NCBI GenBank assembly: GCA_977030845.1
Contig: OZ365118.1
Location: forward strand, 15,376,001-15,440,000
Reading direction: 5' to 3'
Origin: Fimbriosthenelais zetlandica
Taxonomy: Eukaryota
DNA length: 64,000 nt
The notes under the pieces were generated by a model. It did not search any database. It saw only the letters and a list, made by a program, of their open reading frames with translations, and was not told the DNA's origin. Position numbers and translations under genes: made by a program. This document shows, piece after piece, positions 2,359 to 62,139 of this stretch (position 1 is the stretch's first letter; every line of letters begins with the position of its first letter).

Positions 2359-4946
2359 ACTGCTCTCTTTTCTCTCTCCTCGTTCTTGCCCGCATTGTAT
2401 TTAAACCATTGCTGTTAAAAACAGTACATGTGTCATTCATTTAATACATTGCAATGGCTTTGATAAATTCCATTGTTGCATCCGTACTGATGCAATTTAA
2501 CAAAACTATCTCTCCGGCATAAATTCACCTCATGCATTATCCAGTAGGAAATGAATATTTGCCCAACACGCCATATTGGCATACATGCTGTATTTATAAA
2601 GGAATATTTAGATAAATTAGAATTAGAGAAATCTTTAAGATATATTATATTCAAGAAGGTCTAAGGATAGCAATTTTGATTTTATATATCATATTAATCC
2701 ATCGTTACATTGAATGTTCAATAATCTGGGATCATGAACTTTGAAATGGCCCCAAGTATAGCCATTATAGGCCAATAGTTACAATATAAAATATAACCCT
2801 GCACACATTTTTTTTATGAAACGCACCTTATTATAGCTCATGATGTTTTATCTGTCAGTCAATCAGACGTCTATTAGATGCATCATTCCCTGTGATTATG
2901 ACACAAAACCTGCCATTCATTGGCCGTGTTGGCGGTTAGATAAGATCGATCCTTCCCTCAGGTATAAAGCATTGATGCAAATCGCTACTTGTAAATGCTT
3001 CAATTACGAGGTGGGGCACGCGAATGCATCACTCCCACCACGAAACAAATGGTCTGGCATAATTCAATTTGCAGCCCGTTTGTGCAATTGGCTGCCATGT
3101 CCCGCAGATAGGGATGAAATGGGAATTTGAACCAAATAATTGGAACAAAAAAGGTAATAACTTCGGGGAAAAAAGGTAATAACTCGATGCCTCATGATTT
3201 TGTAATGAACGAATACTATGATGCAGATGCTCTAATTCGTTTACGGCTTTCTTTTAATAAGAGAAGTGCTCTAAAAATTAGTGGCTGTCTTTTATCGTGT
3301 TGATTGGCAGAAAATGACTGACTGACTCAGAGAGAATATCGTAATTTCAAGTAGGCGGGGGGCTGCTGATTGCAATGTTCAAGTTGTGTTCGTTTTCTTC
3401 CCAGATTTGAACCTCCTCCCATGGCATTCGGTGCACCGTACTTCTCCCATAGACTTGGGAACCTCTATTAATTTCAGCTCAGGGTGTTAAAAAGCCCCTC
3501 TAGCTGTAGTGAATAATTTGTTTAGAAACAATAGAGGTGTAATGGATTTATGTTGAATTACCGCAGGCTTTGTTTAGGCAGCATGTGGTCTGGGGGGTGT
3601 GTGGTGGTAGAGAGGGGTACATGATATAAAGCATTAGGGGGGCAGTACTTGTGTTATTCTGAATAGTAAAAGACAGCCGTGGGAAACGATGCAAAAATAA
3701 TGACATAATATTGTGATTGCTCCTCTGCCAACCTACTGTGAAAGCACAGGATGAGCAGAAGCCATCTTTCATAAAACAAACCATTTGGATCAGAGAGACT
3801 TTAACTGAGGGTCCTAATTGCGCATTTCTATTAAAAGATATCTGACATTTTTACCGAGTTGAAACTTGCAAGTCTTTTGGCCTTGGGAATTGGGTCAGCC
3901 ATGACTTTAATGTGTCGAGGATCGAGGCACCTTCCCATACAACATGTACTTTACGGCTTTTCAAATTCATCAGATGGCTTTTGCCATTGGTACTGGCTTT
4001 GTCTGACGTGTGATATATCAGATATGCATTTGATACTACCAGTAGGGGGGCCTGGCTAATAGAGCGGCCAAAAGAGGGCGCTTTAATGGATTCGCCCAAT
4101 GAATTTTCAATACGGTAGAGAATAGAGTCTGTGCATCAAGCATTAGTGCCATAAATTTTTGACACCACCCAGCGTATAGGACACAGGATAGATGCATTAT
4201 TTAATTGCCCGTCAATCATACCTCCCAGTCATTGTAGGCCTCTATTAATCTATATAGATGCTATCCTAGATAAGCTCCGTTAAATAAGGCTTCCACATGC
4301 TGCCAGCAGCAGATATGGATCTTTCAAATGACTTTCGCTTCATACGGAATGCACAGATTGAGGCAGTCCATTCGATACCCCTCTCTTCATTAGCTGGCAT
4401 TCATTACACCTACTGAAACCCCCCACACATCCAACAAGTTTTACCCGAGCTATTTTTAAGAAGTGTGCCTACGAGCAATTCTGGCCTTTCATTGGCCTTA
4501 AATTCAAATATGGATGGCGGTTGGGGTATTGCTCTCGCAGGCGTATAGACGGGCTGCTTATATTGACAGGTTGGCTGGGAGGTAGAAAAGGGAAACGATG
4601 CAGAAGTCAGTCTGATCAAAATACACGCCTCCCTCTAACAATTACCTTCTCCCTCCTCTTCAATTTAGCGGCAGCAAGCCAATATCTAATGTCCCATTCA
4701 TTAGGCAATACTGGGATGCTACAATTGCAATTGATTTTCAATTTGTCCTCCGCACAAAGGAGCTGGAAAATAGTAGGGCCTGGGTGTTGGGGTGTGAAAG
4801 GAGAACTTGTGCCATAATGGGGAAGAGAATGGGAAATGTGGCAATGGATTAGTGATAGGGAGGTGGTGGTGGGGGATCAATTAACTATAGTGGCTGACCG
4901 CATCGGGTAGATCAAATGAGCGGGGGCGGTAATGAAAAGGAAGACC

Positions 4947-4952
4947 ACTCAC
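4947..4952 (-). other. 5' splice donor GTGAGT ending the protocadherin exon
   Basis: Plus strand reads actcac|ctg, i.e. minus strand CAG|GTGAGT, a consensus donor. The translated sequence beyond it loses recognisable features. Confidence 0.8.
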
Positions 4953-7784
4953 CTGTGAGATGACATTAGAGTTGGTGCGACTTATGGCCGGGCTGGGCAG
5001 GGATGTGGGCTTCTCATCAAGGTCACTCGTGTCCAGCTCGAAGCGCAAATGGGTTTTCAGTCCGTCGCCAGCGTCCGACTTGGACGTGGAGATATTACCC
5101 ACTTTTTCGTCGGTCTCAACTCTCCGCATGGTGGGGATATGTTTAGGACTGGGCGACTGGTGCTCCAAGTCCACTCGGCGCATGTATTTATAGCTATCAC
5201 GGTGGTTACGTTTCTTTTTCTTCCGGTGAACCAATATAATAGCAATTATGAGGAGGATTACTAGCACTGCACTGGCCACACCCATGGAAATGACAATGGT
5301 TTGGTTAGGAGCCATCTCCAAACTATTGCCATTTGCTCCGCCTTTCCTGTGAGAGATAATAGACATGGTTTTATTAACTATGATATTGATGTCGGATGAG
5401 GCCTGCCTGGGCGGGTGCCCATTATCAGTGACCCTCAGTAATAGTCGGTATCTACGGCCACCATACAACTCCAGGTTCTGATTGACAGTAAGGGTTCCCT
5501 TCATGGGATCTATAGCAAAAAGATCATCCAGGTTTCCCCGAGAGATGGCATAGTCCAAGCGAGCATTGATGGAATCGTCCCTATCACTGGCGATCATTCG
5601 GGTGATAACGTATCCCACAGGTGCCTGGTAGGACACCTGAACTGTGTTATTAATAGGGCTGGGATACGATATAATGGGGTCATTATCATTGATATCCACC
5701 ACTGAGATGGTCACACTCACTGAGCTAGTTGTAAATGGAAAGCCTTTATTAGACGCCATGACAGTGAGTCGATAGACTGCCTGGTACTCCCTGTCCAGCA
5801 TGCGTCTCGTCGTAATCATCCCTGTGTCTGGGTTGATCTGGAAAGCTCCCCTAGATCCCATGTTTGCCCTTAATGTGTAAGTGACTCTATTGTAGGGGCT
5901 CGAGTCGGGATCCACAGCTTTCACTGAGCCCACTTCTGTGCTGCCATCCGAGTTCTCCTCTATATTGAACTCGTAGGATGGCCGGCGGAACACCGGGGAC
6001 TCATCATTGATGTCCACTATTTTCAAGATAACAGTTGCCGTGGCCGATAACGGGGTCACGCCATTATCCGAGGCGATGACTCTGAATTGGAACTGATGCA
6101 TCTTTTCATAATCCAGGAGCGAGTTGGTACTGATGACCCCGGTTTTGGGGTCAACTTTGACCTGCCCCCTAGCGTCTGGGTGGAGAGAGTATGTGATATC
6201 TGAGTTGCGTCCTTCATCCTGATCTGTAGCATTCACTCGTAGGAGGTGCTCATTGATGCTACCGTTCTCCCTCACGGTCACACCATATACATCCTGGTTA
6301 AATATAGGAGCGTGGTCATTCTCATCTATTAGTTTGACCACGATGCGCTTGGTAGACTGTAAAGGGGGCATCCCATGGTCGTGACATTCCAAAGTCAGAC
6401 CAAAAGTTGCTTGCCTCTCTCTGTCAAAGGACCCACCCACTGTGAATATTGTATATTCATTCTGGTAGATTCTCGAAATATCAAAGTTCCGGTCTTTCAG
6501 GGAACATGTCACCTCGCCGTTTTCACCCTTGTCTGAGTCCTCCACTGAGATATGCGTCACAAATGTACTCGGCTCAGCATTCTCCGGGATCTGTACTTGA
6601 CCTGACGGGGTCAGTGAGTTGACAGTGATTTTGGGCGAGTGGTCGTTAATATCCATGACCTTGACCACGACTCTGGCATGGGTAGATACACTGTCTAGGC
6701 CACCCTGGTCGCTGGCGATAACAATCAAATGGTAGATTTTGTCTTTCTCATAATCCAAAGGACCCTTCAAGAAGATATCACCAGTTTGGTTGTTGATGCC
6801 AAAGAGGCTGCCAAAGCGATCAACAGTATCAGGAGATAGCATATAGGTCACCCGTCCATTGGGACCTCGGTCCTTATCAGTGGCGTGGACCCTGATAATC
6901 ATGGTTCCCACTCTAGCGTTCTCTCTCACTGACACGTCATAGCTCGCGTTATCAAACTTGGGGGGATTATCATTGGCGTCCACTACAGACACCTCTATAG
7001 TAAGCACGCCTGATTTAGATGGACTGCCCCCGTCCCTCGCTACGATTCGCATCATGTACATCGCCTTATCTTCACGATCGAGACGGTCTCGTAAAACCAG
7101 CTTCAGATCCCATGATCCATCTGATGTGTTTTGGGCGCGGAGCTCGAACTTTCGAGTTTGCGATCGAAAGTCATAGCTCTGGATGGTATTGCGGCCGCTA
7201 TCTGGATCCCGAGCTGCGGGAATGACAAAACTAACTCCAGGCATAACGCTCTCAGACACTGCCATTGACATTCTGGGCTTGGGGAAAGTAGGCGCGTTAT
7301 CGTTAATGTCTTCAACAAAAACCTTAACTGAAACCACTTCGAGATAGCTGACAGGCACTGGACTGATGGCCACATCAAACTGCAGCACACAAACTAGCAT
7401 TTGAGCACATATTTCCTCCCGATCAATGATCCTTTTGGTCCTTAATTCCCCCGTGGATGGGTCAATAGTAAAATAAGCCCTGTTCGGTTCATCCTTTTTC
7501 AGAAAGTCAAACTTGATATCCCCGTACACATCCGCCCCATACCTCTCGGCTATTTTCGCATCACTACCAATTTGCCCCACCATATTAGTGGCCGTGTTTT
7601 CCTCGGGCAGGGTGTATTCCAGTTTTATCCTTTCCTGTCGATCAGCCCTGGCTGCTGCTGGTCCCAGTGATAGGGTAAGTGCAACCAGGAGGGTCAATAC
7701 ATTGGTAATTGTCAACATGTTGTTATGACGCCTCCGCGGCCTGGGCTTAGCCACGGCTGCGTCCACTGGGATGCGACCATTCAT
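4953..7784 (-). CDS. Protocadherin, large coding exon (944 codons): signal peptide, 7 cadherin (EC) repeats, TM helix, start of cytoplasmic domain; the gene continues in downstream exon(s) not identified here
   Basis: Seven repeats carry the PEN/xEN, DxD, LDRE/LDYE and DxNDxxP motifs (ending DINDNAP, DANDNPP, DINDHSP, DENDHAP, DINDESP, DINDNDP, then a terminal repeat). EC1 has the protocadherin-type DREEIC-x4-C pair. There is a hydrophobic leader (LTLLVALTLSLG) and a TM segment (IVISMGVASAVLVILLIIAIILV) followed by HRKKKKR. In-frame ATGs lie at 7784 and 7718. The track ORF runs to 4881, but a CAG|GTGAGT donor after ...SNVISQ ends the exon at 4953 in phase 0. Confidence 0.95.
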
Positions 7785-9557
7785 CTCACAAGCTGTTATT
7801 GCCCGCTGGTCGGCCGGTCCCTACCACTGATAGGCGGGCTCCATATCGGTGATAACAGCGCCTCTACAGTAGCATTTCCCCTGGCCACTGATGATGCGTG
7901 AATGGACACGATTGTTGTACTTGCTCAGTCCTATCACCATACACAGGACTCCCTAGATCAACACACATGGTGCTCACTGAGCTGCTCCTGCTCCTCAGGC
8001 CCCATGCTCTGGTCACTCCTCCCTCTCTCTATCATTGAGATTATCACAGGTCAGTGGATTAGAGAGCAGCTCATCATTTGTATCGCTGTGTGGATTATCC
8101 GCTCACTTAATCAGGTCCAGCTAGAGACACGTGGCGCGGTCATATCTGTCAAAAACATAACATGGTTGGAATTAGTGACCAATAGACACTCTATGAGGCA
8201 TGCAGATGGTGGGCATTGATAGGATGTGGGGATTAAGCATCTGGTCAGCGGGGTGTATCAATAAATTAGAAGGGTTGTCACCAGGGACTTTGTCATGCTA
8301 ATGTTCAAAATAAATCTCTCACTGTTTAAATCTATCAGGTTTTCCTCTATTGAATGATGTATAGAACTGAGAATAGGTCTCACTTTTGTCCCTTTGTTTA
8401 TTGTAAAATACATTTATAAATTTTAGTATGGAAGATTGGTACAATGCCGAATACTGGCCCTAGTGGGCCGTAATCTTTGAAATTATATTGAAACCTTTTA
8501 TAGCATGAGATATTGTGTTCATTTTGAGACGTTATTCTATTTTTATTTCAGATGTTTCCTGTTCTAGCTGATCCAAATATAGGCAACATGAAGGTAAGAT
8601 TGAACTTTGATAACATCAATTGAAATATAAGCTTTTTTTACTTTTACTCTTGGAAAGGTAATGCATAATGAAAGATAATACCATGAAAGGGAATGAGTAA
8701 TGAAATAATCTGGAGAATAAGTGAAATAAAAGGAATAAGTCATGAAAGGGAATAGATGAATAGATAAGAATCTATCATCTACTCTTTCAATCTCTTGCAG
8801 TATAATTATAAATTCAAGAGCCTCCAGTTAAAAGTTCCATCTCTTTTATAATAGGCTATTGGATACCATCACTGAAATTGTATATGATCATATATATTGG
8901 CAATTTTCATCTGAGATAGCAGTTGTAGTGGTTTCCAGTGTCCCTTTATAAAAGAAAGGTGAGCATTTCCGCCCTTTACGTTGCGACTTGAAGCAATAGA
9001 TTAGTACCCCCTAACCCGACTAAACAAAACCATTGAACTGGCGACCATAAATCATATTAATAATCGAGCTCTGAAAAAGGAGCTAAGCTAGAGGATATCA
9101 AAAAGTCCCTTCTGAGGGAATTCAGCCCACATTATCATAACTCGGAGCTGTCACTAAAAAGACCTTTTCATTCACTTCACTGCTTGAATAAATCACCAGG
9201 GCATTGTAGTTTGCCATCAAAGGCCATCAAAGAAGCTTAAGTGGTCCGCGACTCAGAAGGCTTATTTTGATGCAAATTTGACAAATACAAGGCTGGACGC
9301 TTTAAAAGCGGCCCCTCGCTAATCTGTTGCTTTGGGGAATACTGGAAACAAAAGCAATCTGTCGTGAAATTAGTGGCTTTATCGGCGGAGGCGTAAGAGT
9401 TGTGAATAGTTGGAGGAGTCCCACTGAGGACTCTACGATAAGTTCGCTACACTGCGCCGTCTATTGGCCATCAAGGGACGACTCACACTGAGTTTTCTTG
9501 GGGGCTGTTTTTTTTAGATGGCGCCTCCTGCAGACGCCGAACGCAAGCTGTTGGCTT

Positions 9558-20243: not shown

Positions 20244-20709
20244 GCTTTCTCTGTCCCCCCTATACCATCTCTGTTCCTATACCAGTTTATATTCGTCTCC
20301 ATCTCTCTCTCACTCTAATTCCAACTGATATTGTAGTAAATTCGCTGCATGCAGCTCCTTTACCGTGGTTTTACACCAGGCAAGACCATGAGTTTCCCCT
20401 AGAGCCTTTGGCTACACCCTGCCGAGCGGTGTCGTTGCAACGCTGGATGTGTTTTAGTTAATCTCGTTTTTAAGGACAATGTGTTTACGAATAGATCTAC
20501 TTTCAGTTAAGGACCTTATTTATGGAACTCATTTAGATGATGTGTTAAATACTCATTAAAGGACATTCCAGGAACACTGAGACATAGTCTCCTCATCTTC
20601 AGGCTGGACAATAGACTCCTGCTATATGCGGACTAAATCCGGGAATATTCCGGAAAGGTTATCTGCGCCATCTGCGGTGCTTTATGGAACTTCGGTTCCA
20701 AACGATTAT

Positions 20710-20742
20710 TATAAATGACAAGTTTGTGTGTTACTTTTCAGA
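20710..20742 (+). promoter_or_regulatory. Predicted LTR core promoter (TATA box + Inr, TSS ~20740)
   Basis: TATAAA at 20710 and TTCAG with A at 20740, matching canonical TATA-to-Inr spacing. Confidence 0.5.
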
Positions 20743-21422
20743 GGTGAAACTTAGAGTCATAATTATGTATAATGTACTTGTATATTATGCCGTGTGTGAA
20801 TTATGTCATTTTCGACTTGTATCTGTGATATTGTCCGTTAGACGGTCTGAATGTCTGAGAACACCTCAGCCATTCATGTAGGACTCCGTATGGGTCCCGC
20901 CTCTCACCAACACAAGGGGGCCTTCACAGGAGTGTTGGTCCGGGACTAGCCACGACCGGTTAGTCTGAGTCTGCTGCTTCAATCGTTCTCGGCCAGTTGG
21001 CCTCGAGTCCGGATCTTTGCAAGATCCTCGAATGAACCATGCTGGGTTCACGGGCCTAAGTGGAGACGTGTAGTCTTCCCGGGTATGCTACCCGCCTCGC
21101 ATTCCCACGCAACTACACCAGACCTGGGTCTGGTACCGAGCAAGTCCGTGTAGGACAAACTACCCGGGGCATCTTCCAAGGCCGGTTCCCGGCCGGGATT
21201 GCTATCCCGGATCTTCCACGTTTACGGGTCATTTACGGAGCGCTCGTCAAATCCGGAACTCCGGATTCCGGTTTGACTGTGCTCAGGGTTTGGCTGGGTA
21301 CCCATCCAGTTGACCTTGTGAGCGCCTGTAGCTTCCCTTATTGTACGATCACACGCGTTCTGGGTGCGCATTCATCACTGTCTATTGAATACCTGTTTGT
21401 TCTCCTGTATGGATCTACACTA

Positions 21423-21428
21423 AATAAA
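21423..21428 (+). terminator. LTR polyadenylation signal AATAAA (3' copy at 31116-31121)
   Basis: AATAAA followed by GT/T-rich sequence, ~120 nt from the LTR end in both copies. Confidence 0.7.
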
Positions 21429-21547
21429 TGAGCAACACTGCATAAGTTTTAAACTGTATCTGATTGCCTTTTGGTTCCTTCAATTATTGCCGAATTGTAT
21501 TTGGGTATTAGTTTTTAGTCTCTTTACTTTAGCCGGTTCATTACAAT

Positions 21548-21565
21548 TGGTGCCGTGACCAGGAT
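21548..21565 (+). other. Primer-binding site complementary to tRNA-His 3' end
   Basis: TGGTGCCGTGACCAGGAT starts two bases after the LTR end. It is complementary to ...ATCCTGGTCACGGCACCA, the invertebrate tRNA-His(GUG) 3' end as recalled. Confidence 0.85.
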
Positions 21566-21709: not shown

Positions 21710-23833
21710 ATGGAGGAAGACGCGGACCATGGCGTTGAGGCCGAAGTGGTCCTTAGTGAAAATGCAAGACGCGCGCTGCGCCGCGCTAGTAATCGAGCAG
21801 CAGATGAAGTCGGCATAGCCAAGGCACGATACGTTGCTCGAAAGCAAGAAATACTAGAAGCGGTGCAAGGTCATACGCCTCGGCATCCTCCCTCTGGAGG
21901 AAGGGCCGCCCCGGGTCATTTCCGGGATGACACAGACGTGTTCCTTGCGGAAGTTGAGCAGTTCGAAGAAAGCCTGGAGGCTGAACAAATAAGATACGGA
22001 GAAGAAGAAGACGACTCGGACGGGGAAGGGAGGTCGCACTACAGCATAGCGGATGATGAGGCTGCTTCCTTTGATGGGAGGATAGCCCCCGACCAGACCC
22101 CGGTGGGTGGCGATCTAGTGACCGTCCGCCCGCGAAGGTTGGAAGGTACGCTCCGCGAAGTGCCCCCCGGTTCCGGATGGGACGACCGAAGAGTGGTGTC
22201 AAGTACCCGTACGGGTGAGTTGGGTGACGAAGATCAGACGGATTCCGAGGAACGTGATGCAGTTCCCCGGAGGTACCGCGAAGGTCCGGGGGTGCGGTTT
22301 GCACCCAGTCCTGCGGCTGCGGGACCCCGAAGAATCGATCACCCAACTCCTGTCGTCCACGGGGAGGTGAGTCCTGTGGGCTCGCCATACCCGCGGCGGG
22401 AAAGACGCCCCAGTGGTCCCATACGTCCGGCAGCAACTCCGAGAAGGGATATCCCGGATCCGAGACCCGATGGTCACGTTCCGGGAATATGCCCGGAAGA
22501 GAGAAGAGCCTCTGCGCAGGCGCGAGATAGGCCGTTTACGAGTCCGGTGGTAATGGCCCCGGATTTGGCCCCGCGGTTGCTGACGGAGGATGCTATCTCC
22601 CGAAGTCCTTCGGAAGTTCCATCTCCAGGCATGTCCGGCGGACATGTAACCCCTTCTGTCTACACCACGGGCGTATCTCGGGAAGAAGTTGTATCGCCCC
22701 CGGCAGCCCCGGGATCGGTCTGTCGAACGGCGGGGATATCGGCGTTCGATTTGGACTTATCTCCGGAGCGGCCGCGGGGGAAAGGTAAATCGGCTTTGGA
22801 TTTGTCTCCCTGCGAAACGGGAGAGCAGGAACGAAGAGAAAGAGAAAGACAAGACCAGCCCCGGGGCCCGCGGGCTCTCCGGGAGTTACGGAGGGCAGGT
22901 GCAAATTCCGCAGGTGCGGAACGAGGATTGCCCCCGCGGCCACCCCCTTTTCCTGTGTGGGACGAATCCAAAGAGACGTGGGAAGATTACGAGTTGCGGA
23001 TTAATAGCTACTTAGCCAGGGGCACCCTGAGCGATGCAGAATTGAAAGACTACTTGACCGGCGGTCTGGGACGCCATCCCCAGATCGTCGCGGCTTTGGA
23101 CTTTTCCAAACCAGTAGAAGAGTTGTTGGAGTTATGTCGAACTTACTTCAGCGACCTGACGGAGCTGGATTTGCGCTTGCAGTTAGAAGCCTGTCGGCAG
23201 ACGAAAGACCAGTCCGTGAAACAGTTTGGGAGGGAATTTGCTGCTAAGGTGGATCGTGTCCACCGTCCCATGGATGAGAAGACTCGGGACCAAATGATCC
23301 ATCAGTTCACGATGGGTCTCCTTGACCGGAAGGTCGCGGATTATGTCCGCATGGCGGAACCGAGATCTATCTGGTCGGCTGTAACCTTGGCTTGTAAGGC
23401 GGAGGCATCGCGGAAAGCTTGGCAGTATAGGCAGGCTAAGGCGGCTGCGTACGCTCTTGCCCTGGAAACTGCCGAGCCATGGGACAATATGGGCGACTAC
23501 GGCGAAGAGGCGGGAGCAACGTTGGCGGCTGTTGACGTGGCGAAACGACCTCGACCGGACCGTCCTAAACCTAAGACATCTGGCGGACACGATAAATCGG
23601 CTGCCGCGCCCCGTCCGGCCGGACGCGGGCGTGGAGGTGCAAAGTCCAAACGCCGGACACCAGGGTGCTGGTGTTGTGGGGATCCCGGGCATTTCATGGC
23701 GGATTGCCCATCCCGGACCTCCATACCAAAAGAGATGATCGCTATGTTGCGAGAACAGATGGCAGGGGTTTTCCAGGAGGCTAGGGGAGAGAAGCCGGAA
23801 AACGCCCCGGGCTCCCTAACAGAAGCGGTTTAG
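21710..23833 (+). CDS. gag: Gag polyprotein, 707 aa: long acidic/Pro-Arg-rich N-terminal extension, capsid domain, CCHC zinc knuckle
   Basis: First ATG at 21710 in strong context (aagATGG); the track start 21689 is a TTG. MHR-like RQTKDQSVKQFGREF; CWCCGDPGHFMADC (Cx2Cx4Hx4C) at 23666-23707; TAG at 23831-23833. Confidence 0.92.
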   Translation: MEEDADHGVEAEVVLSENARRALRRASNRAADEVGIAKARYVARKQEILEAVQGHTPRHPPSGGRAAPGHFRDDTDVFLAEVEQFEESLEAEQIRYGEEEDDSDGEGRSHYSIADDEAASFDGRIAPDQTPVGGDLVTVRPRRLEGTLREVPPGSGWDDRRVVSSTRTGELGDEDQTDSEERDAVPRRYREGPGVRFAPSPAAAGPRRIDHPTPVVHGEVSPVGSPYPRRERRPSGPIRPAATPRRDIPDPRPDGHVPGICPEERRASAQARDRPFTSPVVMAPDLAPRLLTEDAISRSPSEVPSPGMSGGHVTPSVYTTGVSREEVVSPPAAPGSVCRTAGISAFDLDLSPERPRGKGKSALDLSPCETGEQERRERERQDQPRGPRALRELRRAGANSAGAERGLPPRPPPFPVWDESKETWEDYELRINSYLARGTLSDAELKDYLTGGLGRHPQIVAALDFSKPVEELLELCRTYFSDLTELDLRLQLEACRQTKDQSVKQFGREFAAKVDRVHRPMDEKTRDQMIHQFTMGLLDRKVADYVRMAEPRSIWSAVTLACKAEASRKAWQYRQAKAAAYALALETAEPWDNMGDYGEEAGATLAAVDVAKRPRPDRPKPKTSGGHDKSAAAPRPAGRGRGGAKSKRRTPGCWCCGDPGHFMADCPSRTSIPKEMIAMLREQMAGVFQEARGEKPENAPGSLTEAV

Positions 23834-26800
23834 GAGAGCCGGAGCCGGGCCGGGGGTTGGCGGGATTACCCGTAAACCCGGGCCCGGGAACGCTTCAACA
23901 ACCATCGGCAGCACGAAGTAACTCGGCGTCGGTAGTAGGGACTTCCGCGGAGGCGCGGGCGCCCGCTCAAGTTCAGAAGACCTCTGTACGGCCGCGGGCG
24001 GAGCCCGAAGTTGTGTCTATCACGGACGGTGGTACCCGGAACGCGCCCGCGAGGCGTCATGAACCTCGCGTGGGGAATGAAGTGATCACTGGAGAGGCGC
24101 CCCGACTGGTTTCCGTAACGTCCGAGTACGGAGCGGAACCGGTGCGGATAGCGATAATAGACCCAACCGACGTAAGCCGACATACTTTACGACTCCCTAG
24201 CCAGAAGGCTATGGTGAAGGACCGATGGTATGTTACCGTAGAAGTTAACCAGCAGGGAGCAGAGTTGTTATTGGACACAGGGGCTACTACTTCGCTTGTG
24301 TCTAAAGAATTCTACGACTCCTTGCGCCGCCCACCCCCTGTGCAGCCAACGCACACGGAGGTTATGGTCGCGGATGGGGACACGCTGCGGACGGAAGGCA
24401 TTGGCTGCTTTCCTTTTCGGATCGGTGGACACGTATTTGTAATGCCATGTTTGGTGGTTTCCGGACTGATCGACGGAGAAGAGGGCATTCTGGGAGCTGA
24501 TTTTTATCACGTCCACCGATGCTGCTTGGACTGGTCGGGACGACTTACACTCGGGAATGGGGAGGTGACAGTGGCGTGTCATGCCCGGAGGGCTGCGGCG
24601 AAGGCCCGGCTTTCCGAGGACGTGACCCTGGGCGCCTACCGAGCTGTGCTTTGTAAGGTTACGATCCCGCGGGATAACCCGCGCGGGTTGTTGTACATCC
24701 CGGACCATGAGAATTTGGCGGAATTGACAGTGGGGAGCCTCAGCACGTATGTAGCCGGAGAAGATAAAGAACCCCGTGTCATTCTGTCTAACCCCACGCC
24801 ATTGCCGATCCGACTGCAGCGAGAGACGCCGGTCGGAGATCTTCACGTGGTGGAGGTTACGGATGAGGACTTGATGTGCCCGGATTTGGTAGTACCCCCC
24901 GCAGATGAATGTCCGCTGGAGAAGGCGGTCAAGGAATCGCACATCAAGAATATCGGTCAGAAAGAACGGGCACTGGCACTATTACGAGAGTATTCCGGGT
25001 GTTTCGCGATGCCCGGAGACGAGTTGGGACAGACCGATCGGGTGAAGCATCGGATTACCTTAAAGAATCCGGACCCGATTCGGCAGCCTTACAGACGGCT
25101 TCCGGTTTCCCGGAGGGAAATATGTGAGGCGGAAATACAGAAGATGTTGGACAAAGGAGTGATCGAACCCAGTGAGAGCTCGTGGAGTTCCCCCATTGTC
25201 ATGGTCAAGAAGAAGGACGGATCGATGCGGTTCTGCGTAGACTATAGACGGCTGAACCAGGCAACCCAGACGGACAGTTACCCCCTGCCGCGAATTGACG
25301 AAGCGCTTGATGCGTTAGGCGGGAACCAGTGGTTCTGCTCGTTGGACTTGGAAAGCGGTTACTGGCAGATAGCGATGGAAGAAGAAAGTAAAGATAAGAC
25401 TGCGTTCATCAGCAGTCTTGGGTTATTTCAGTTCAAAGTTATGAGCTTTGGCCTGTGTAACGCGCCTGCAACGTTCGAGAGAATGATGGAGACGATGTTG
25501 TCGGGCTTAAGATGGAAGAAGTGTCTCGTTTACATCGATGATGTGATCGTGTACGGAAAGACGTTTGGGGATCTTCTGGATAATCTCCGGGAAGTTCTCG
25601 AGCGGGTCAGAAGCTATGGATTGAAGTTGAAACCTAAAAAATGTAAAATGTTCCGCCGTCGGGTGGAATATCTAGGCCGGATAGTTTCCGGAGCCGGGAT
25701 TGAGCCGGATCCCGCAAAGATACGGGCAGTGCAGTATTGGCCTCGCCCGGAGACCACGAAGGAAGTGAGGAGCTTCCTCGGGTTCACATCATACTACCGA
25801 GAATTCGTCCCACAGTTTGCAACTGTGGCGGGTCCGCTCCAGGAGTCGGTGGTGCTGGCAATGAAGAAGAGTGGAGGTCGTGCCTCCCGAGTCGAATGGA
25901 CTCCGGAGTGCGAGGTGGCCTTCCGCGAATTGAAGAGTTTGCTGGTCCGGGCCCCGGTTTTGGGTTACGCGAATTCTACGGGGACGTTCATTCTCGACAC
26001 AGACGCAAGCAACATCGGCATGGCCGGCGTGTTGTCCCAGATGCAGGACGGCCATGAACGGGTGCTGTGTTATGCAAGTAATTCCTTAAGTGGAAGCCAA
26101 AGAAACTACTGCACGACGAAGAAAGAGCTTCTTGCGATAGTGACCTATCTGCGGAAGTTCCGCCACTACTTGTTGGGGTGTGAAGATTTCTTCGTTCGTA
26201 CCGACCACGCTTCGCTGAAGTGGTTGGTGAACTTTAAAGAACCTCAAGATTTGTTGGCACGATGGCTGACGACCATACAAGAATACGGGATTAGTTCGGG
26301 CTTAATCCGGCATCGGGCAGGCGCCAAACATCAGAACGCGGATGCCCTGTCGAGGTTGGTAAAGAAGAAATGCCCGCGCCCGGGTTGTCAGCAATGTCAG
26401 CAGGCAGTAGGACCACCAGTCGTAGCCTCCCTAGCTGTGCTAGAGGATGAGGGGCGTATGCCGGGGGCGCAGAAGAACGACCCGGACATTTCCCGGATCA
26501 TCCGGCTGAAGCAGTCGGGTGCGGATGTTCCTTCGCGTGAGAAGTTGCGCGGAGAATCCGCGGAATATCAGACCCTTGCGGGAATGTATGACGATCTGGA
26601 AGTTGGAGAGGACGGTATTCTGCGTGCTAAGTGGCACAGAAAGGCCACCGGTTATACAAGATGGAGGATAGTCGTTCCCTACGCGCTCCGTGAGGAGATC
26701 TTCCGGGCCCTTCACGGGTCCCGGATTTGCGGACATTTCGGGAACTTCAAGTCGGTGTGGAAAATCAAACTGCGGTTTTACTGGCCCGGATTGAAGAGGG

Positions 26801-28254
26801 ACGTGGAACGATGGGTGAAAGCATGCCCGGAGTGTGCTATGCGGAAGTCTCGTGCTGGTGGGGGTCTAGCCCCCTTGAAGAAAGAGATTCACGGCACATC
26901 CTTTTCGCGGATCTCGTTGGATATCATCGGTCCGTTTTCCACAACCCCGCGTGGGAAGACTTGTGTTCTTGTCATTACGGACTTCTTCACGAAGTGGGTT
27001 GAGGCTATCCCGCTGCCAGACCATAAGGCAGAGACCGTGGCGCACGCCCTATTCTACGAATGGATTCTGAAGTACGGCCCACCTGTTTCCTTGCAGACGG
27101 ACGGTGCTCCAGAGTTCCGGGGTCATCTACTCACCGAACTATGTGAATTAATGGGCATGGAAAAGTTGTTGACGTTGCCTTACCGGCCCGTAAGTAATGG
27201 CCAGGTGGAACGTTTTAACAGAGTGCTCGTAGAGCAGCTTTCCTGCATCATTAACTATGACCAGAACCATTGGGACTTGTTGGTGCCATGTATTGCGAGC
27301 GCGTACCGAGGTACGGTTCACGCCAGTACAATGGTTACTCCGAATAGTGCACTATTCGGCTCGGAAGTAATCACTCCGGCGGATCTCCTTTACGGGGTTT
27401 ACCCGGGAATGTTGGATTTTCCGTGTCGGACGGTGTACGTTGAAGAAGTGAAGAAGCAGTTACGGAATGGCCATCGGTTCATCCGTGAACAGCTCGGGAA
27501 GTCCGCCGTGCATCAGAAACGATACTTCGATGCCCGGTCTCGCCCGCGGGAATACCCGCCGGGGACGGTGGTGTACAAGTATGACAACGTAAGGGCCAAG
27601 CACAAATATGATAGAAAATGGGACGGCCCATTCGTGGTCGTTCGAAATTACGGAGGGACAACTTACGAACTTCGCTCCGAGAGCGGTCTCCTACGATGTC
27701 ATGTGGACTACTTGAAGCCAGCGTTCGGGAAGGACGGGGCCGTGCAGACTGTGAATCTGCATGCAGCGCCGGAATATAGAGCTCAACAAGCGAAGGGGGT
27801 TGAATATGTTACGACGGATTTGATGGGTCGAACTATTCGCGGGAAAGACGCGCCGGAGCCAGCGGAACCCCGTGAGAGGGTGGTTCGCCGGCGTGGAAGG
27901 AAGAAGCGGCGCTCTGTCCCCCCGCAGAGCAGGGCGAGAACGAAGCTCCGCCCGAATCCGGACCCGGATTTCGTGGTTCCCACATCTGTTACGGATGTCC
28001 GGAAACCCGCGAACCGTGTCACCAGGGCTACGACGGCCCGTAAAAAGGCCGTGGAACGAGATGTAGGAGGTACAGATGTGCCTCGCGTTGAAGTTGAGCC
28101 GCGGACGAGAGTCGCGGGAAAACGCAGCATCCGGGCCCCGGAGAGGTTTGGGAATCTCGCCCCGGAACGTGAGAAGGGAAGGAAGAAACGTGTGACGAAA
28201 ACGCCTATACGACCGTTGCACGGTAAATATAAACAAACACAACGAGAAGTCTAA
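23785..28254 (+). CDS. pol: Pol polyprotein (aspartic protease, RT, RNase H, DDE integrase with GPY/F motif), -1 frame relative to gag
   Basis: LLDTGA at ~24274; YIDD 25531-25542; DTDAS 25996-26010; HHCC (HGSRICGH...CPEC); catalytic D 26920, D 27100, E 27208 (D-x35-E); WDGPF. The frame opens after TAG at 23782-23784, overlaps the gag end and has no ATG before the protease region. No chromodomain is evident. Confidence 0.97.
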   Translation, partial: GREAGKRPGLPNRSGLGEPEPGRGLAGLPVNPGPGTLQQPSAARSNSASVVGTSAEARAPAQVQKTSVRPRAEPEVVSITDGGTRNAPARRHEPRVGNEVITGEAPRLVSVTSEYGAEPVRIAIIDPTDVSRHTLRLPSQKAMVKDRWYVTVEVNQQGAELLLDTGATTSLVSKEFYDSLRRPPPVQPTHTEVMVADGDTLRTEGIGCFPFRIGGHVFVMPCLVVSGLIDGEEGILGADFYHVHRCCLDWSGRLTLGNGEVTVACHARRAAAKARLSEDVTLGAYRAVLCKVTIPRDNPRGLLYIPDHENLAELTVGSLSTYVAGEDKEPRVILSNPTPLPIRLQRETPVGDLHVVEVTDEDLMCPDLVVPPADECPLEKAVKESHIKNIGQKERALALLREYSGCFAMPGDELGQTDRVKHRITLKNPDPIRQPYRRLPVSRREICEAEIQKMLDKGVIEPSESSWSSPIVMVKKKDGSMRFCVDYRRLNQATQTDSYPLPRIDEALDALGGNQWFCSLDLESGYWQIAMEEESKDKTAFISSLGLFQFKVMSFGLCNAPATFERMMETMLSGLRWKKCLVYIDDVIVYGKTFGDLLDNLREVLERVRSYGLKLKPKKCKMFRRRVEYLGRIVSGAGIEPDPAKIRAVQYWPRPETTKEVRSFLGFTSYYREFVPQFATVAGPLQESVVLAMKKSGGRASRVEWTPECEVAFRELKSLLVRAPVLGYANSTGTFILDTDASNIGMAGVLSQMQDGHERVLCYASNSLSGSQRNYCTTKKELLAIVTYLRKFRHYLLGCEDFFVRTDHASLKWLVNFKEPQDLLARWLTTIQEYGISSGLIRHRAGAKHQNADALSRLVKKKCPRPGCQQCQQAVGPPVVASLAVLEDEGRMPGAQKNDPDISRIIRLKQSGADVPSREKLRGESAEYQTLAGMYDDLEVGEDGILRAKWHRKATGYTRWRIVVPYALREEIFRALHGSRICGHFGNFKSVWKIKLRFYWPGLKRDVERWVKACPECAMRKSRAGGGLAPLKKEIHGTSFSRISLDIIGPFSTTPRGKTCVLVITDFFTKWVEAIPLPDHKAETVAHALFYEWILKYGPPVSLQTDGAPEFRGHLLTELCELMGMEKLLTLPYRPVSNGQVERFNRVLVEQLSCIINYDQNHWDLLVPCIASAYRGTVHASTMVTPNSALFGSEVITPADLLYGVYPGMLDFPCRTVYVEEVKKQLRNGHRFIREQLGKSAVHQKRYFDARSRPREYPPGTVVYKYDNVRAKHKYDRKWDGPFVVVRNYGGTTYELRSESGLLRCHVDYLKPAFGKDGAVQTVNLHAAPEYRAQQAKGVEYVTTDLMGRTIRGKDAPEPAEPRERVVRRRGRKKRRSVPPQSRARTKLRPNPDPDFVVPTSVTDVRKPANRVTRATTARKKAVERDVGGTDVPRVEVEPRTRVAGKRSIRAPERFGNLAPEREKGRKKRVTKTPIRPLHGKYKQTQREV
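23797..23840 (+). promoter_or_regulatory. Predicted -1 programmed ribosomal frameshift signal (G_GAA_AAC + stem-loop)
   Basis: Heptamer 23797-23803 is in gag phase inside the 49-nt gag/pol overlap, followed by a 6-nt spacer and a 10-bp stem with one bulge (GGCTC-CCTAA / TTAGG-A-GAGCC, 23810-23840). Confidence 0.65.
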
Positions 28255-29092: not shown

Positions 29093-30661
29093 ATGGCTGA
29101 ACGCCATAGTGAACCCCGTTCCTTTGAACCACCACAGGGCGTCGGTGACTATAGGTCCCATAGAAGTAAGTCTAGGGATTCCTCTCATTCCTCACGATCC
29201 TCCGGATCGCGAAAGAAGGATGATAAGTCTCGGAGGAAGTACGAAAGGCGTGCAAGGTCTCGCTCGCTCTCGCCTCCGGGCAAAGATGGAGAAGTTGCCA
29301 GATTCTCCCCGCTTAAGGCCGTGAGGACGCCTGGAATACGTCGTCTTCGCTACGAGGATGTGGGACATCTGCGGCCTAAGGACTTCATCGAGGTTGTGCC
29401 CCGAACGGCGCGCCCCGCGAACAGTGATCCCCGTGAAACTGATCCGGATTTAGACGCGTTCATAGAGGGAATGACTTACGAAGGTCTCTTCCACGAGATC
29501 CAAGCAACCACAGGTCCCACGTTCCGTGGGCTCGCCCTCCCTACCGTGGAAGTGTCTCATCTAGAGCGTCTCCAGCGGGTCGAAAAGATTTGGGCCCCTC
29601 CGGAAAGGTGCCCTTTCCTCATTTGCCGGTCTAGGACCCAGAGTAAGGGCATCATGTGTGTTCTGCGCAACCGTGAATGGTTCTACCGACATCTGGTTGA
29701 GATACACACTCCTGTTACCGTGGTATGGTATTGTCCGATTCGGCAGTGCCTACACCGCACCGATCGTCCGGATGAGATGCAGGACCATATTTCGTCCGGA
29801 CACAAACAAAGTAAGAAGGATGCTTTGTCCAGGGTTAGAAGAGACGGCAGGTGGGAGTATGTGATAAATCCCTATTTCGCCAGCACTCTCTGGATGGATG
29901 ACGCGGACTACTTCGGCTATTTGAAGTCGCGATCATATCCCGACCACCGTCAACCCGGATCGCCTCCAGAACAGCCGGCCAAACGCCGTCATGAAGACAG
30001 GTCTCCGGAATCCATCCGGGCAATCCCCGCTGCTGCGGGAGCACCTCCTGCCATTGTGGCTACTGCCCCTGAGGAAGTCCCCTCTACTTCCGTGGCGCCT
30101 ACCCCTGAGGGAGTCCCCTCTACTTCAGTTGGACATCTGGAAGACGTGACGAATGACAGTCAGTTAGCGGAACCTCCCGCCGAGTCGAGTGTTCGATCCC
30201 CGGAAGTGCCGGGCACCTCCTCTATGGCTGGTTCCCCCTCCGCTTGTTCAGTCAGTGGGACTGATGATGATGAAAGTATGGACGGTTACATAACGGATTC
30301 GGTGAATTCGATCGCGGCAACCGCGCGCGAGGTCTTACGATCTCAGGTCCGTGCTTGCCGTGAACAATCGCGTCGTGAGGACGCTGGAGCCATCTCCCGA
30401 TTACACGCGGAGAATGTTCAACTCCGGAAAGACTATGAGCAAGCGCTCATTCAACTGAGGGAGGTCACCCGTTCCCGGGAAACGCTTCGGCAGCAAGCCG
30501 CCGGATTCGAGGAAATAATGAAAGTAGCCCGTAGAGTGGATGTCCCTACTAAACCAGCCACTCGAATGGGCCCGGACTCCGTATGGGTCCCGCCTCTCAC
30601 CAACACAAGGGGGCCTTCACAGGAGTGTTGGTCCGGGACTAGCCACGACCGGTTAGTCTGA
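29093..30661 (+). CDS. ORF3, 522 aa accessory protein of unknown function (RS-rich region, two C2H2 zinc fingers, NLS-like motif, Pro/Ser/acidic linker, coiled coil); not an envelope protein
   Basis: Uninterrupted ORF with good Kozak context (gtcATGG). C-x4-C-x21-H-x4-H at 29609-29707 and C-x4-C-x12-H-x4-H at 29732-29803; PAKRRH ~29975-29992; 36-nt tandem duplication (30066-30090 / 30102-30126); heptad-like region ~30320-30530. No signal peptide or TM segment. The last ~29 codons lie within the 3' LTR. Confidence 0.85.
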   Translation: MAERHSEPRSFEPPQGVGDYRSHRSKSRDSSHSSRSSGSRKKDDKSRRKYERRARSRSLSPPGKDGEVARFSPLKAVRTPGIRRLRYEDVGHLRPKDFIEVVPRTARPANSDPRETDPDLDAFIEGMTYEGLFHEIQATTGPTFRGLALPTVEVSHLERLQRVEKIWAPPERCPFLICRSRTQSKGIMCVLRNREWFYRHLVEIHTPVTVVWYCPIRQCLHRTDRPDEMQDHISSGHKQSKKDALSRVRRDGRWEYVINPYFASTLWMDDADYFGYLKSRSYPDHRQPGSPPEQPAKRRHEDRSPESIRAIPAAAGAPPAIVATAPEEVPSTSVAPTPEGVPSTSVGHLEDVTNDSQLAEPPAESSVRSPEVPGTSSMAGSPSACSVSGTDDDESMDGYITDSVNSIAATAREVLRSQVRACREQSRREDAGAISRLHAENVQLRKDYEQALIQLREVTRSRETLRQQAAGFEEIMKVARRVDVPTKPATRMGPDSVWVPPLTNTRGPSQECWSGTSHDRLV

Positions 30662-31238
30662 GTCTGCTGCTTCAATCGTTCTCGGCCAGTTGGCCTCGAG
30701 TCCGGATCTTTGCAAGATCCTCGAATGAACCATGCTGGGTTCACGGGCCTAAGTGGAGACGTGTAGTCTTCCCGGGTATGCTACCCGCCTCGCATTCCCA
30801 CGCAACTACACCAGACCTGGGTCTGGTACCGAGCAAGTCCGTGTAGGACAAACTACCCGGGGCATCTTCCAAGGCCGGTTCCCGGCCGGGATTGCTATCC
30901 CGGATCTTCCACGTTTACGGGTCATTTACGGAGCGCTCGTCAAATCCGGAACTCCGGATTCCGGTTTGACTGTGCTCAGGGTTTGGCTGGGTACCCATCC
31001 AGTTGACCTTGTGAGCGCCTGTAGCTTCCCTTATTGTACGATCACACGCGTTCTGGGTGCGCATTCATCACTGTCTATTGAATACCTGTTTGTTCTCCTG
31101 TATGGATCTACACTAAATAAATGAGCAACACTGCATAAGTTTTAAACTGTATCTGATTGCCTTTTGGTTCCTTCAATTATTGCCGAATTGTATTTGGGTA
31201 TTAGTTTTTAGTCTCTTTACTTTAGCCGGTTCATTACA
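30574..31238 (+). repeat. 3' LTR, 5'-truncated (665 nt)
   Basis: No mismatch found against 20881-21545 (offset 9693). Ends TTACA|ATAT. It does not begin with TG and has no upstream polypurine tract. Confidence 0.92.
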
Positions 31239-34081
31239 ATATATTCACATGAAATTGTGTAGAAATGAAAATGACTTGAGTGCATAAAAAAATCCACCAG
31301 ACGGCAGACACTTTGAACTAAATTAAAGACTTCACAAGCATCATTATTTCAATAATGAAGACGAAGCAGCACCCAATATTAGACGAATCTCTCAATTAAA
31401 ATCGCTTGAATCTTTAAGAAAGGTTGAGGTCCAAATTTTCAAATTTAAGAATTTTCATTTCCAACTCACTTTTAATTCCCTCTGAGTAGATGACAGACAG
31501 ATGGACTGATCAAAATTTCTCCAAAAAACTCCAAATTGAATTTCCCAAGATTGGCTTAAGTTTATGAGAATGGATTTTCCCAATTATTTGTTAAGCATGA
31601 CGTCACGTCTTGTGAACGAAAGAGGAAATAGGGGAATAGGCTTTGTCCCTTTTAATAATAAAGGGACCATTTTAAGTGATCAACGGCCGTTTCTTATCGC
31701 TGTTTGATTTGGGCAAAGGTTAAGAAAGCCTCTATTGTGAGAGGTTTGTCTAAAGATAGCCCTTACCCTCGATGGTGGTACTCAAGAGGGCTTGTCTCAC
31801 AATTAGGATGTACTTCTTTATAAGTCCCCATGGACTTACCATTGGTTCTAGCTTTGTAGTGAAACACGCCCAAAATGTAAGACCCTCCAAGGGTGGGGGG
31901 CTGAAGGACATAGCTATACATTTGTTGCATTGTTCGTCAGTGTCTCAAGTCTATTGTTGGCGACAGTTAATAGCTACTATTATATACTCCAAACTGTCGA
32001 CATCTTAATTGGGCAGGGGAAAGATGAATAACATTTCAATTAATTGTACAGATAAGATTTTAAGTGAATTAAGAATGATCCTGCTTCAGAAGCAAGGTAC
32101 CGATAATATAGCTAGGTCTAAATAAACAAGTTTATATATCACTAATGTATAATTGTAAAGTTCTACGATACAGCTGTGAGATTGCAATGGTTTATCACCT
32201 ATAAAATCATTTAGAAACTTAAAGCCATTTTTGGTCAAATCACCAAGCCAATAATAACCCCTGATGAGGCCCATTCCGTCGCGAAAATAAACAGCCTTAT
32301 ATAAGCTTATAGATTTCTGGAAGATGCATAGAACTGTAGATTCATCCTTCGATGGAACCCAATACCCAGTCAAGCTTATTATAAGCCCTCGCCTATATAC
32401 CAGTGCTAAAAAACCTCCAGTTTATCAGCTTCCCTGCGTCTCATAAATGCTTTAGCATAAAGCTTTAATAGACGACTGGAAGCAGTTGAGCCAGGACCAT
32501 GGACCACCCCGGCTAATGTGCCCCGATGTGCTCTTCCTTCCATAACCCTGCCTACCTATATACTCTATGTCAATAGCATTTTCATAGTCCCTCACAATGG
32601 TTGGGAAATAGCCTGCACCACTCCTCGGTGGCCACGATTCAAAGAAGGGGACCTGGATATTGGCGATAAAGCAGTCGCAAGGAAATTGCTATGTCTTTGC
32701 CTTTTATGTGGCCTCCGCCCCTCCCGACCGACGAAGCATCTTTTAATACGCTGCCATATAGACTAGGTAATAGTTACCTACAAGAAGGCAGGTGTAGTAA
32801 CATAGCTATACCTTATAAAAAAGACAAGCAAGAACTCTTAATTCCCTCCTTGAGCTTAATCACTTAAAATTCTATTATAGTACATTATAAATATAGATAA
32901 ATTGTCAAAGATATACCATTGTGTAGCTCCCCAAAGGACCAATACCTCACATGGTTATTTTTTCCCTTTAAAGCGGGGGTGGGTTAAAAATAGGTGGGAA
33001 CCATAATGCATTTATGTAAGAAGAAAGAAATGAATTGATTTCCCAGCGCATATGTTAGACGACGAGGGAGGGGGAGATGGAGAGATGGTTTGTTTCTATA
33101 ACAGGTATGGATTGGGGAAGGGTATAAGAAGCACTAATGCTATCATTCAAATGAATCGGCTGGCAGAGCTGGCATTTTACGCGGCAATGCTTTCACATAT
33201 GAGCCATAGTTGATAGCGTTTAAAGCAAACACACCCCACCAGTGATACATCATGGCGGCAGACAGCTTCCCTGCGTGCTGCATTTCAACAACATTAAGAG
33301 GCGGAAAACATTCAAGCTACTGCCTCTCCAAATTCCTATCCTTCCAAGTGAAAAGAAGGTGGTGGAGGAATGGAATAAGAAGAAGAACTGGTCGCCAGTG
33401 GCAACAGAACAATATTGTTCTAGTTATCATATCGCCGGAGCCAAAGGACAAAAATTCCTTAAGCTCGCATGACCAAAAGCTGTATTTCATTTGGCACCTT
33501 TTTTAGGATCCGTTAGCAGGTTGCTAAATCAGGGAGGCGAAGAGGAGATGGCGAAATTGCTCATTACGAGCTGAGACTAGGCAGGAATAATACTTCAAGG
33601 CCCTTTCTCATTGTTGAACATTACCCAGTGGGGGTGTAGGGGGGTCCAGGAACCCACTAGTACCCCCCTTTTCATGATTAATGATAGCACCATTGTCCTC
33701 TGCGTGATCACGACTTTCTCTATCAAGGTGGCAACTTCTTGAAGTCTGGCTTTACCCGAGGAAGAAGAATGCTTTACATGCGAAGAGAGGGAAATGCTTG
33801 TAAGCAATCCAATTAAATGTTTGTCTTTTGTAAGACTTGCTATCGTCTGTGGTGGTGTAATAAGCATCATTAAAGCTAGTAGGGAGGGGGTGATATGTTC
33901 TTCCTCCTTAAAGCAGTCTCCCTCGTTAAAGCCAGGGTTGTCATGAACGAGGATCAAGCCTTCTGCGGTCAGTGTGGGTGTGTGCGTGTGATTTTTAAGG
34001 TGCGAAGAAAAAGAAGGGGTGGGGTTAATTAACAAGGGAACTGGGCGAAGGAAGGGAGTGTGAGAAGGGGCTTCTGGGAGA

Positions 34082-61949: not shown

Positions 61950-62119
61950 CCACACAACAATACACAAACAATGGTGGAGGCCTCCAAACATAACCACACA
62001 ACAATACACAAACAATGGTGGAGGCCTCCAAACATAACCACACAACAATACACAAACAATGGTGGAGGCCTCCAAACATAACCACACAACAATACACAAA
62101 CAATGGTGGAGGCCTCCAA
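61950..62119. repeat. 44-bp minisatellite, ~3.9 identical copies
   Basis: Unit CCACACAACAATACACAAACAATGGTGGAGGCCTCCAAACATAA starts at 61950, 61994, 62038 and 62082 (partial). Confidence 0.95.
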
Positions 62120-62139
62120 CTATACTAATTCTTCTCACG

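Follow-up and report, generated by a model that had tools for sequence, protein, structure and literature searches.

A hairpin chain in the LTRs of a young Ty3/Gypsy retrotransposon, read as RNA shape kept under selection, with a function proposed by analogy

The middle of the long terminal repeat (LTR) of a Ty3/Gypsy retrotransposon, which lies in the window (i.e. the whole stretch of 64,000 nucleotides that was analysed), carries a chain of hairpins that are real. From the comparison of LTR copies within the genome, the chain is read as being under selection for its shape as + strand RNA, with local refolding. What the structure would do is a matter of analogy: the region 20812-21325 may be a redundant, shape-read element of the R region that would serve export and translation of the full-length RNA via host proteins, a proposal that we consider possible but short of probable.

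The element that hosts the chain is, by its sequence, a young Ty3/Gypsy LTR retrotransposon, here called family A, with the domain order of that group (gag, then pol with protease, RT, RNase H and integrase) and with the LTR hallmarks, namely TG...CA ends, a primer-binding site (PBS), a polypurine tract and a short target-site duplication (TSD). Its features lie on the + strand. The 5′ LTR is complete (20332-21545; 1214 bp, TGTAG...TTACA), as homology stops at these bases in 30 loci among the 40 scored matches (98-100% identical) of 235 candidates; it includes an AT-rich stretch at 20701-20811, a putative core promoter with the TATA-like TATATTA at 20781-20787, and an AATAAA poly(A) signal at 21423-21428, with an unstructured stretch (folding z +2.1 for 21360-21479) and then a T/GT-rich one. 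The PBS, TGGTGCCGTGACC..., follows at 21548-21565 and is presumably that of tRNA-His. Next come gag (21710-23833), with one CCHC knuckle and with Pfam matches that are below curated cut-offs, pol (23785-28254) in the Ty3/Gypsy order, and ORF3 (29093-30573), with a basic/RS-rich start, two C2H2-like fingers and a coiled-coil-like part, its end being deleted. The 3′ LTR (30574-31238) lacks its first 549 bases by comparison with other copies, in which a PPT-like GGGGG run precedes the 3′ LTRs: a 1496-bp deletion with a 3-base microhomology took the end of ORF3, the polypurine tract and the 549 LTR bases. Since the TSD (ATAT, 4 bp, at 20328-20331 and 31239-31242, by sequence comparison) is intact and the remaining parts of the two LTRs are identical, the deletion probably came after an insertion that is itself very recent. 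The array listed by a sequence-only reading of the same DNA begins at 20881, which is not the LTR start but the edge of the deletion in the 3′ copy; the hairpins, therefore, lie mid-LTR. Elsewhere in the element, strong local folding (z -4.2) covers the gag-pol overlap at 23582-23831, where pol is in the -1 frame, and is likely a frameshift signal; 29582-29831, over the finger-coding stretch of ORF3, reached z -4.8 (one window of 42, with 20 shuffles). A large exon on the minus strand (4881-7820), some 12.5 kb away from the insertion, encodes cadherin repeats and a transmembrane stretch, and we take its product to be a protocadherin-like protein; 61888-62151 holds a 44-bp tandem repeat in 5 copies, adjoining a TCTTGC-type low-complexity array (62141-62645).

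The inverted repeats listed by the sequence-only reading are all present where it had placed them, and in both LTR copies, which are without a mismatch across 20881-21547 at an offset of 9693. A strand-neutral scan of 20881-21277 found 11 strong hairpins against 4.0±1.4 in 100 dinucleotide shuffles, none of which reached as high a count; in U3 the same scan gave 1 against 2.3. The folding energy, which the reading had named as a check, is also low for the interval, with z -2.15 on the + strand (2/100 shuffles as low), -3.5 on the minus strand, and -3.5 for 20805-21350. The best 250-nt window of the chain reached -3.4 and two 250-nt coding windows of the element -4.2 and -4.8, folding energy alone being a modest signal of the chain. 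The proposed run of about 11 consecutive hairpins stands as a count of strong stems, but these cannot all form together, as H2 (20907-20938) has a pairing probability of 0.00-0.02 in 6/6 copies folded with two span settings and H7 (21068-21118) of 0.0-0.54 in 6 copies folded; H3, H5, H13 and a hairpin at 20855-20869 reach 0.65-1.0 in 6 copies with two span settings. Likewise, stems do fill the interval 20881-21277, but the structure begins near 20812 and extends to about 21325.

From 5′ to 3′ on the + strand, the region opens with a four-way junction (20812-20920), predicted by RNAalifold to consist of two closing stems and three hairpins, of which H1 (20881-20897), with a variable loop, is the third arm. 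H3 (20944-20965) derives from a 25-nt tandem duplication and has a complete stem in younger copies only; H4 (20991-21002) is a short GGCC/GGCC stem that is kept in family A. H5 (21011-21027) ends in a UGC triloop in young copies (44/85) and in GGAG, GGY or AGT in older ones, with a change of the closing pair from C-G to U-A, and H6 (21033-21050) has a conserved stem with a predicted six-base loop containing TGC (53/85), TGT or TGA. RNAalifold favours a hairpin with a GUGUA loop at 21062-21078 over the previously listed H7. There follow H8 (21080-21094), with a UGC triloop in 58/85 copies and AGC in 26/85; H9 (21117-21134), a CUGG tetraloop hairpin kept in family A; H10 (21144-21156), with a GUGUA loop that is invariant in 85/85 copies; and a long hairpin (21164-21210) that encloses the former H11a and H11, its long form being found in the old and in the newest copies and a two-hairpin form being preferred in intermediate ones. 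H12 (21238-21284) is a long hairpin, the shape of which is common to families A and B with different pairs, and H13 (21286-21325), past the end of the array as first drawn, has one pair that shows C-G, U-G and U-A states.

Searches with the LTR and with ORF3 recovered a graded series of family A copies that are 73-100% identical, with single-step intermediates. The LTRs pooled were 94 (two truncated copies, L107 and L108, having been left out earlier), and 85 were kept once near-identical ones had been removed, young copies being over-represented. Changes in at least 3 copies were called shared and were compared with private ones, and the helices for the pairing test were picked after viewing the alignments, leaving out H2, H3, H7, H11a, H11, the closing pair of H8 and one pair of H13. 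In the helices so picked, shared changes kept or broke pairing in the ratio 18:1 and private ones in the ratio 26:42 (Fisher p=1e-5), the corresponding values without CpG-type changes being 10:1 and 13:34 (p=2e-4). Taken unselected, the 84 pairs of the sequence-only reading give 19:24 for shared vs 29:54 for private changes (p=0.34), with G-U:A-C at 16:7; they fail the test because several of the stems are recent or refolding. Shared breaks are absent from H1, H4, H6, H9 and H10 and occur in H2, H3, H7, H8 (at its closing pair), H11a, H11 and H12; the A-C in H5 we read as a register effect of a 3-base indel. In a pair count on 28 copies and 87 pairs, 96.4% of cells were paired and 6 pairs had changed two-sidedly, values as high being found in 3/500 shuffles; some two-sided changes are of CpG type. 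In an alignment-free check, z lay between -2.2 and -4.8 in 15/15 copies, down to 77% identity, and was -1.1±1.5 in random-decay controls (n=12, 22% change), a comparison that is noisy, with few shuffles and with overlapping ranges. Entire hairpins have been lost or duplicated between subfamilies, which fits redundancy.

The same counts bear on a DNA-level or neutral origin, according to which palindromic factor sites, cruciforms, or quasi-palindrome errors together with CpG decay would have produced the chain, with no RNA function. In agreement with it, CCGG palindromes number 12 in the chain region vs 2 in U3, the minus strand folds equally well or better, also across copies in the alignment-free check, part of the two-sided changes are CpG-type, and the intermediate form of H11 is a perfect palindrome. 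However, shared changes in the picked helices led to G-U pairs 16 times and never to A-C pairs (10:0 when CpG-type changes are removed), and a DNA palindrome would have no reason to prefer G-T; this also bears out the earlier view that G-U pairs favour function as + strand RNA. Private changes likewise lean to G-U, by 21:11 over A-C. Furthermore, family B keeps its shapes with many G-U pairs, and we regard an origin at the DNA level as very improbable.

The junction at 20812-20920 is, on comparison of the sequences, the block best conserved between families A and B (71-76% identity), and shows the lowest density of private changes among LTR sections; most single copies of A and B fold into it on their own. 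Across 14 copies of A and 7 of B, 99.4% of the junction is paired, and the two families are separated by 4 two-sided changes, a measure that was equalled by 449/500 shuffles and that reflects at most 4 events, 3 of which could be CpG decay. Two private changes of the window copy (20917-20918) break the outer stem, the 3′ arm of which is identical in 55/65 young LTRs. The arm loop AACAC (20860-20864) and the H10 loop GTGTA (21148-21152) are both invariant in 85/85 copies and contain the complementary ACAC and GTGT; a second GTGTA loop is found at 21068-21072. A loop-loop contact between AACAC and GTGTA is possible, from the complementarity of their letters; no covariation was seen for it, and it is not obviously kept in family B. 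When 14 loci of further families that share the PBS were scanned with a covariance model of the junction, no match had an E below 0.048, and a DNA search of the genome with the B junction as query yielded, among the 40 scored of 340 matches, identical B copies only. Derivation of the LTR from a tRNA, a 5S RNA or a known ribozyme was considered and rejected, as ARAGORN found no tRNA and Rfam no match above gathering, with 2 weak matches on the window region (E 0.62 and 9, far below gathering) and 0 on 5 loci.

In the sister family B, the RT is 93% identical to that of A and the ORF3 fingers only 46-48%. Its LTR has a hairpin chain at the matching position, of different sequence (z -5.1), in which the shapes of H5, H6 and H12-H13 match those of A with different letters. 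Within single sequences, G-T and A-C mismatches number 7 and 2 in family B, leaning to the + strand, and 1 and 3 in family A, which is uninformative. An open frame of 209 codons runs through the chain of one B copy (L062, 4589-5218) and is probably, from its composition, a by-product of G+C richness. [quoted passage not shown] The PBS pattern, which has 290 matches across the genome, led to families C-H through 100 listed sites, 40 of which were fetched along with others; among the loci fetched, LTRs of these families measure 500-850 bp. Families C, D and G have no chain (z on the + strand 0.2, -0.3 and 1.0) and yet multiply. In family F, with an LTR of 849 bp (L181, L176), long hairpins precede AATAAA too, with z -5.1 on the + strand, and families E and H (L164, L179) show weaker folding there (-3.6 and -3.3, respectively).

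Where the chain would sit in the transcript depends on the start site. The AT-rich stretch upstream ends at 20811; in the copies of family B that were printed, TATATAA lies 17-18 bases before the junction, and A has a weaker TATATTA at 20781. From the position of the AT-rich/TATA stretch and of AATAAA at 21423, we infer a start at 20810-20830 and an R of about 630 nt, so that the chain probably lies in R and, hence, at both ends of the RNA. Thus, its earlier assignment to the 3′ UTR of every transcript holds insofar as it is upstream of AATAAA, but is incomplete, since it would probably be part of the 5′ leader as well. Processed copies with a poly(A) tail gave 0 matches to the search pattern. 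Retroviral R regions measure 15-250 nt in the available part of one source (PMC12789967), and, with the start as placed here, R would be more than twice the longest of these (about 630 vs 250 nt). Excerpts of two others link the conservation of long R regions to stem-loops (PMC3601003, PMC2664473).

Our preferred reading of 20812-21325 starts from this position and from the way in which the region changes. The junction and about a dozen predicted hairpins have pairing that is largely kept and loops that are free to change; double-stranded-RNA-binding or helicase proteins of the host would be recruited by this RNA shape, and, once bound, would export the full-length transcript from the nucleus and promote its translation. 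The Gag leader, as placed here, is 898 nt long and holds 9 upstream ATGs, and plain scanning would read it poorly. The likeness to the retroviral post-transcriptional control element (PCE), described in the accessible text of PMC2657110 as a redundant stem-loop structure at the 5′ end to which RHA/DHX9 binds, and to the R stem-loop of MLV (PMC2664473) is drawn because shape is kept, loops are free, hairpins are redundant, the region is probably cap-proximal and the leader is hard to scan. That four loops are moving to UGC is unexplained by a reading of shape only.

A protective structure would be a different use of the same region: a G+C-rich and A-poor R could shield the nascent RNA from early termination, early polyadenylation or small RNAs, and its fast loop changes would let it evade recognition by the host. 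The base A makes up 18% of 20810-21335 vs 26% of U3, and retroviral LTRs are described in PMC3601003 as poor in A from TATA to AATAAA; the loops, moreover, have the highest density of shared changes. Against such shielding, AATAAA is not within a hairpin, as reflected in the positive z of its surroundings, three related families have no chain, and loops that evade recognition would diverge, whereas these converge on one triplet. We hold protection to be quite unlikely.

The loops themselves had been proposed as the core of the signal, i.e. four hairpins capped by a TGC loop that would be conserved as a binding motif. Of the four, H5 and H8 are predicted triloops, but H6 and H11 are not: in H6 the triloop closure has a probability of at most 0.01 and a six-base loop is predicted, and in H11 the TGC has GCA at 21169-21171 as an alternative partner within the long hairpin, with probability 1.0 for the segment alone and 0.39-0.65 in context, the two-hairpin form with a TGC loop being preferred in intermediate copies (0.67-0.84) and the forms being mixed in context. 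Conservation of the motif did not survive the comparison, for TGC is found in 44 (H5), 53 (H6), 58 (H8) and 48 (H11) of the 85 copies, in all four loops of 38/85, young only, and in none of the B loops compared. Loops are, indeed, the fastest-changing sites of the LTR, with 0.53 shared changes per base vs 0.12-0.38 in LTR sections. Stepwise paths to UGC can be followed, one of the underlying comparisons having left out copies below 89% identity or with fewer than 1150 aligned bases: TGA to TGT to TGC in H6, with a reversion to TGT in 7/65 young LTRs; AGC to TGC in H8; CGGA to TGCA to TGCT in H11; and, in H5, GGAG to GGY or AGT to TGC, followed by the switch of the closing pair. In three triloops (20839, 21018, 21086) the first base changed from a purine to U. 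The static chance that some triplet is common to 4 or more of 14 loops is 0.12, and that of 4 of 7 short loops starting with it is 3e-4, the latter being post hoc and counting H6 and H11 as short. Convergence on UGC is recent and possibly selected, judging from these paths, and the UGC loops would be recent tuning rather than the core signal; avidity for a protein that did not itself change may have been gained recently.

Such tuning could be towards decay factors, the young UGC triloops acting as constitutive decay elements (CDEs) of the Roquin type, which would direct the RNA to deadenylation or P-body-like sites and tune the passage from translation to packaging. H5 and H8 of young copies meet the CDE definition of a YRN triloop on at least 6 Watson-Crick pairs, as given in the accessible text of PMC6294493; the window has 2 triloops of this type, whereas the 4 oldest copies tested have 0 in their chain and family B has 0; at least 2 occur in 0.02% of 5000 shuffles, and the purine-to-U changes point the same way. 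Moreover, Ty1 and Ty3 need P-body proteins (excerpt of PMC4974528). The shuffle test, however, disregards that the stems already exist, strong Roquin loops are YAU, with UGC unmentioned in the available part of PMC6294493, and the triloops are absent in older subfamilies and in family B. It would also cover two hairpins only. We judge a Roquin-type role improbable.

Alternatively, in the lead given by the sequence-only reading, exposed loops containing G would bind the zinc knuckle of Gag as a multivalent docking or dimerisation signal for packaging. The stepwise moves to UGC with intermediates, the palindromic nature, exact or to within one base, of H5, H8 and the TGCA form through which H11 passed, and two precedents, i.e. 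the binding of a UGCG tetraloop by RSV NC through its knuckle (PMC5035970, in part) and the dependence of Ty3 packaging on UTRs or POL (PMC4974528, in part), are in its favour. However, the knuckle core, which was detected in 7 copies among 16 loci, is identical in 7/7, 4 of these having a non-TGC H5, and older subfamilies and family B have spread widely without UGC loops. In the same partial texts, the selectivity of RSV Gag survived mutation of UGCG and depended on stems (PMC5035970), and Ty1 R was dispensable for retrosome localisation (PMC4974528). The chain is inside the LTR, in both copies, rather than unique to genomic RNA and outside repeats as a psi would be; if ORF3 is made by splicing, as assumed, an R element would also sit on spliced RNA, so that it would give no selection of the genomic RNA. 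Gag docking is, in our estimate, unlikely.

The other candidate ligand is ORF3, which would bind the junction or the chain as a response element of the TAR or RexRE type and drive elongation or the export of unspliced RNA. The protein has a start rich in basic and RS residues, two C2H2-like fingers and a coiled-coil-like part; its fingers, like the chain, have diverged quickly between A and B, with RT at 93%; and the junction would be at a TAR-like position if the start is near 20812, with its arm loop AACAC invariant in A. Three older copies differ in finger 1, so that earlier loop switches are not cleared by the constancy of the finger helices, which stay the same on both sides of the H5 and H11 switches (55 loci; finger positions are numbered by a scheme that we assumed). 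This constancy nevertheless speaks against ORF3 as the reader of the loops, as does family C, in which the finger domain is present (25-29% identity) and neither the chain nor a match to the junction model is found, i.e. chain and accessory protein do not co-occur there. Neither ORF3 nor the Gag knuckle, in sum, has gained positive support as the ligand. Families A, B and C share an ORF3 family with an invariant W-x-P-x2-R-C-P and two C2H2-like fingers (L062, L142). A profile search found 29 relatives at E<=0.001, none of the 6 looked up being named; a word-indexed search and metagenome contigs gave 0 matches each, the window protein had no Pfam match, and the Atlas gave C2H2 leads only. The fold search (model with mean pLDDT 66) returned nothing at E<=0.001, its weak matches being DNA-binding fingers, and ORF3 may, therefore, act on promoter DNA or on proteins. 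A response element for ORF3 seems rather unlikely. A literature search of limited coverage (without most subscription papers, Repbase or supplements) found no description of the LTR structure or of ORF3.

A bolder proposal would combine several of these elements in an RNA switch like that of complex retroviruses, with a cap-proximal cloverleaf read by ORF3 and an array converging on UGC, base by base, in four hairpins for a new partner, Gag or Roquin; we deem it unlikely. If it were true, the copies in this genome would record, in datable steps and with each intermediate preserved, how a multivalent RNA binding site came into being. Much is known of structured R regions from vertebrate retroviruses and hardly anything from animal Gypsy elements, and the graded series of copies allows a direct test of how an RNA keeps its shape while stems and loops are rewritten, and also lets loop convergence be tested as a sign of a new partner.

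We know of no PCE in a Gypsy element. Several known systems are, in part, similar. The LTRs of Helenus, Ajax and Cassandra, which derive from small RNAs, resemble the present one in a cloverleaf-like fold, an animal LTR and a 4-bp TSD (PMC10886601, available portion), but here there is neither a tRNA nor an Rfam match and the element is autonomous rather than a TRIM. The UGCG tetraloop of RSV muPsi shares with the chain a loop containing UGC and a Gag with a CCHC knuckle; the loops here are, instead, triloops or a hexaloop, lie within the LTR and not in a unique leader, and are not conserved, while the knuckle is unchanged. With the CDEs of Roquin, the young H5 and H8 have in common a YRN triloop on 6-7 Watson-Crick pairs (PMC6294493, in part), here recent, with UGC rather than the preferred YAU, and in a retrotransposon. 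HIV-1 TAR and HTLV-1 RexRE are also structured LTR RNAs accompanied by an accessory ORF, and the junction would be cap-proximal as well; no loop or bulge that could be a contact motif is conserved across A and B save CAC in one arm, only the junction-arm and H10 loops being invariant within A, no Rfam match exists, and, unlike in RexRE, AATAAA is downstream of the chain, so that bridging is not needed, and family C has ORF3 without the structure. Finally, the PCE of retroviruses (SNV, MPMV, HTLV-1 and HFV RU5) and the R stem-loop of MLV, as described in the accessible text of PMC2657110 and PMC2664473, differ from the present case in that the predicted structure here spans about 510 nt and belongs to a Ty3/Gypsy element of an invertebrate-type genome, and a PCE acts on the translation of unspliced RNA, which it raises in an orientation-dependent way; they are like it in having redundant LTR stem-loops, predicted computationally here on the sense RNA and probably transcribed at the 5′ end, in a structure that is kept better than sequence, and in a long leader that is hard to scan.
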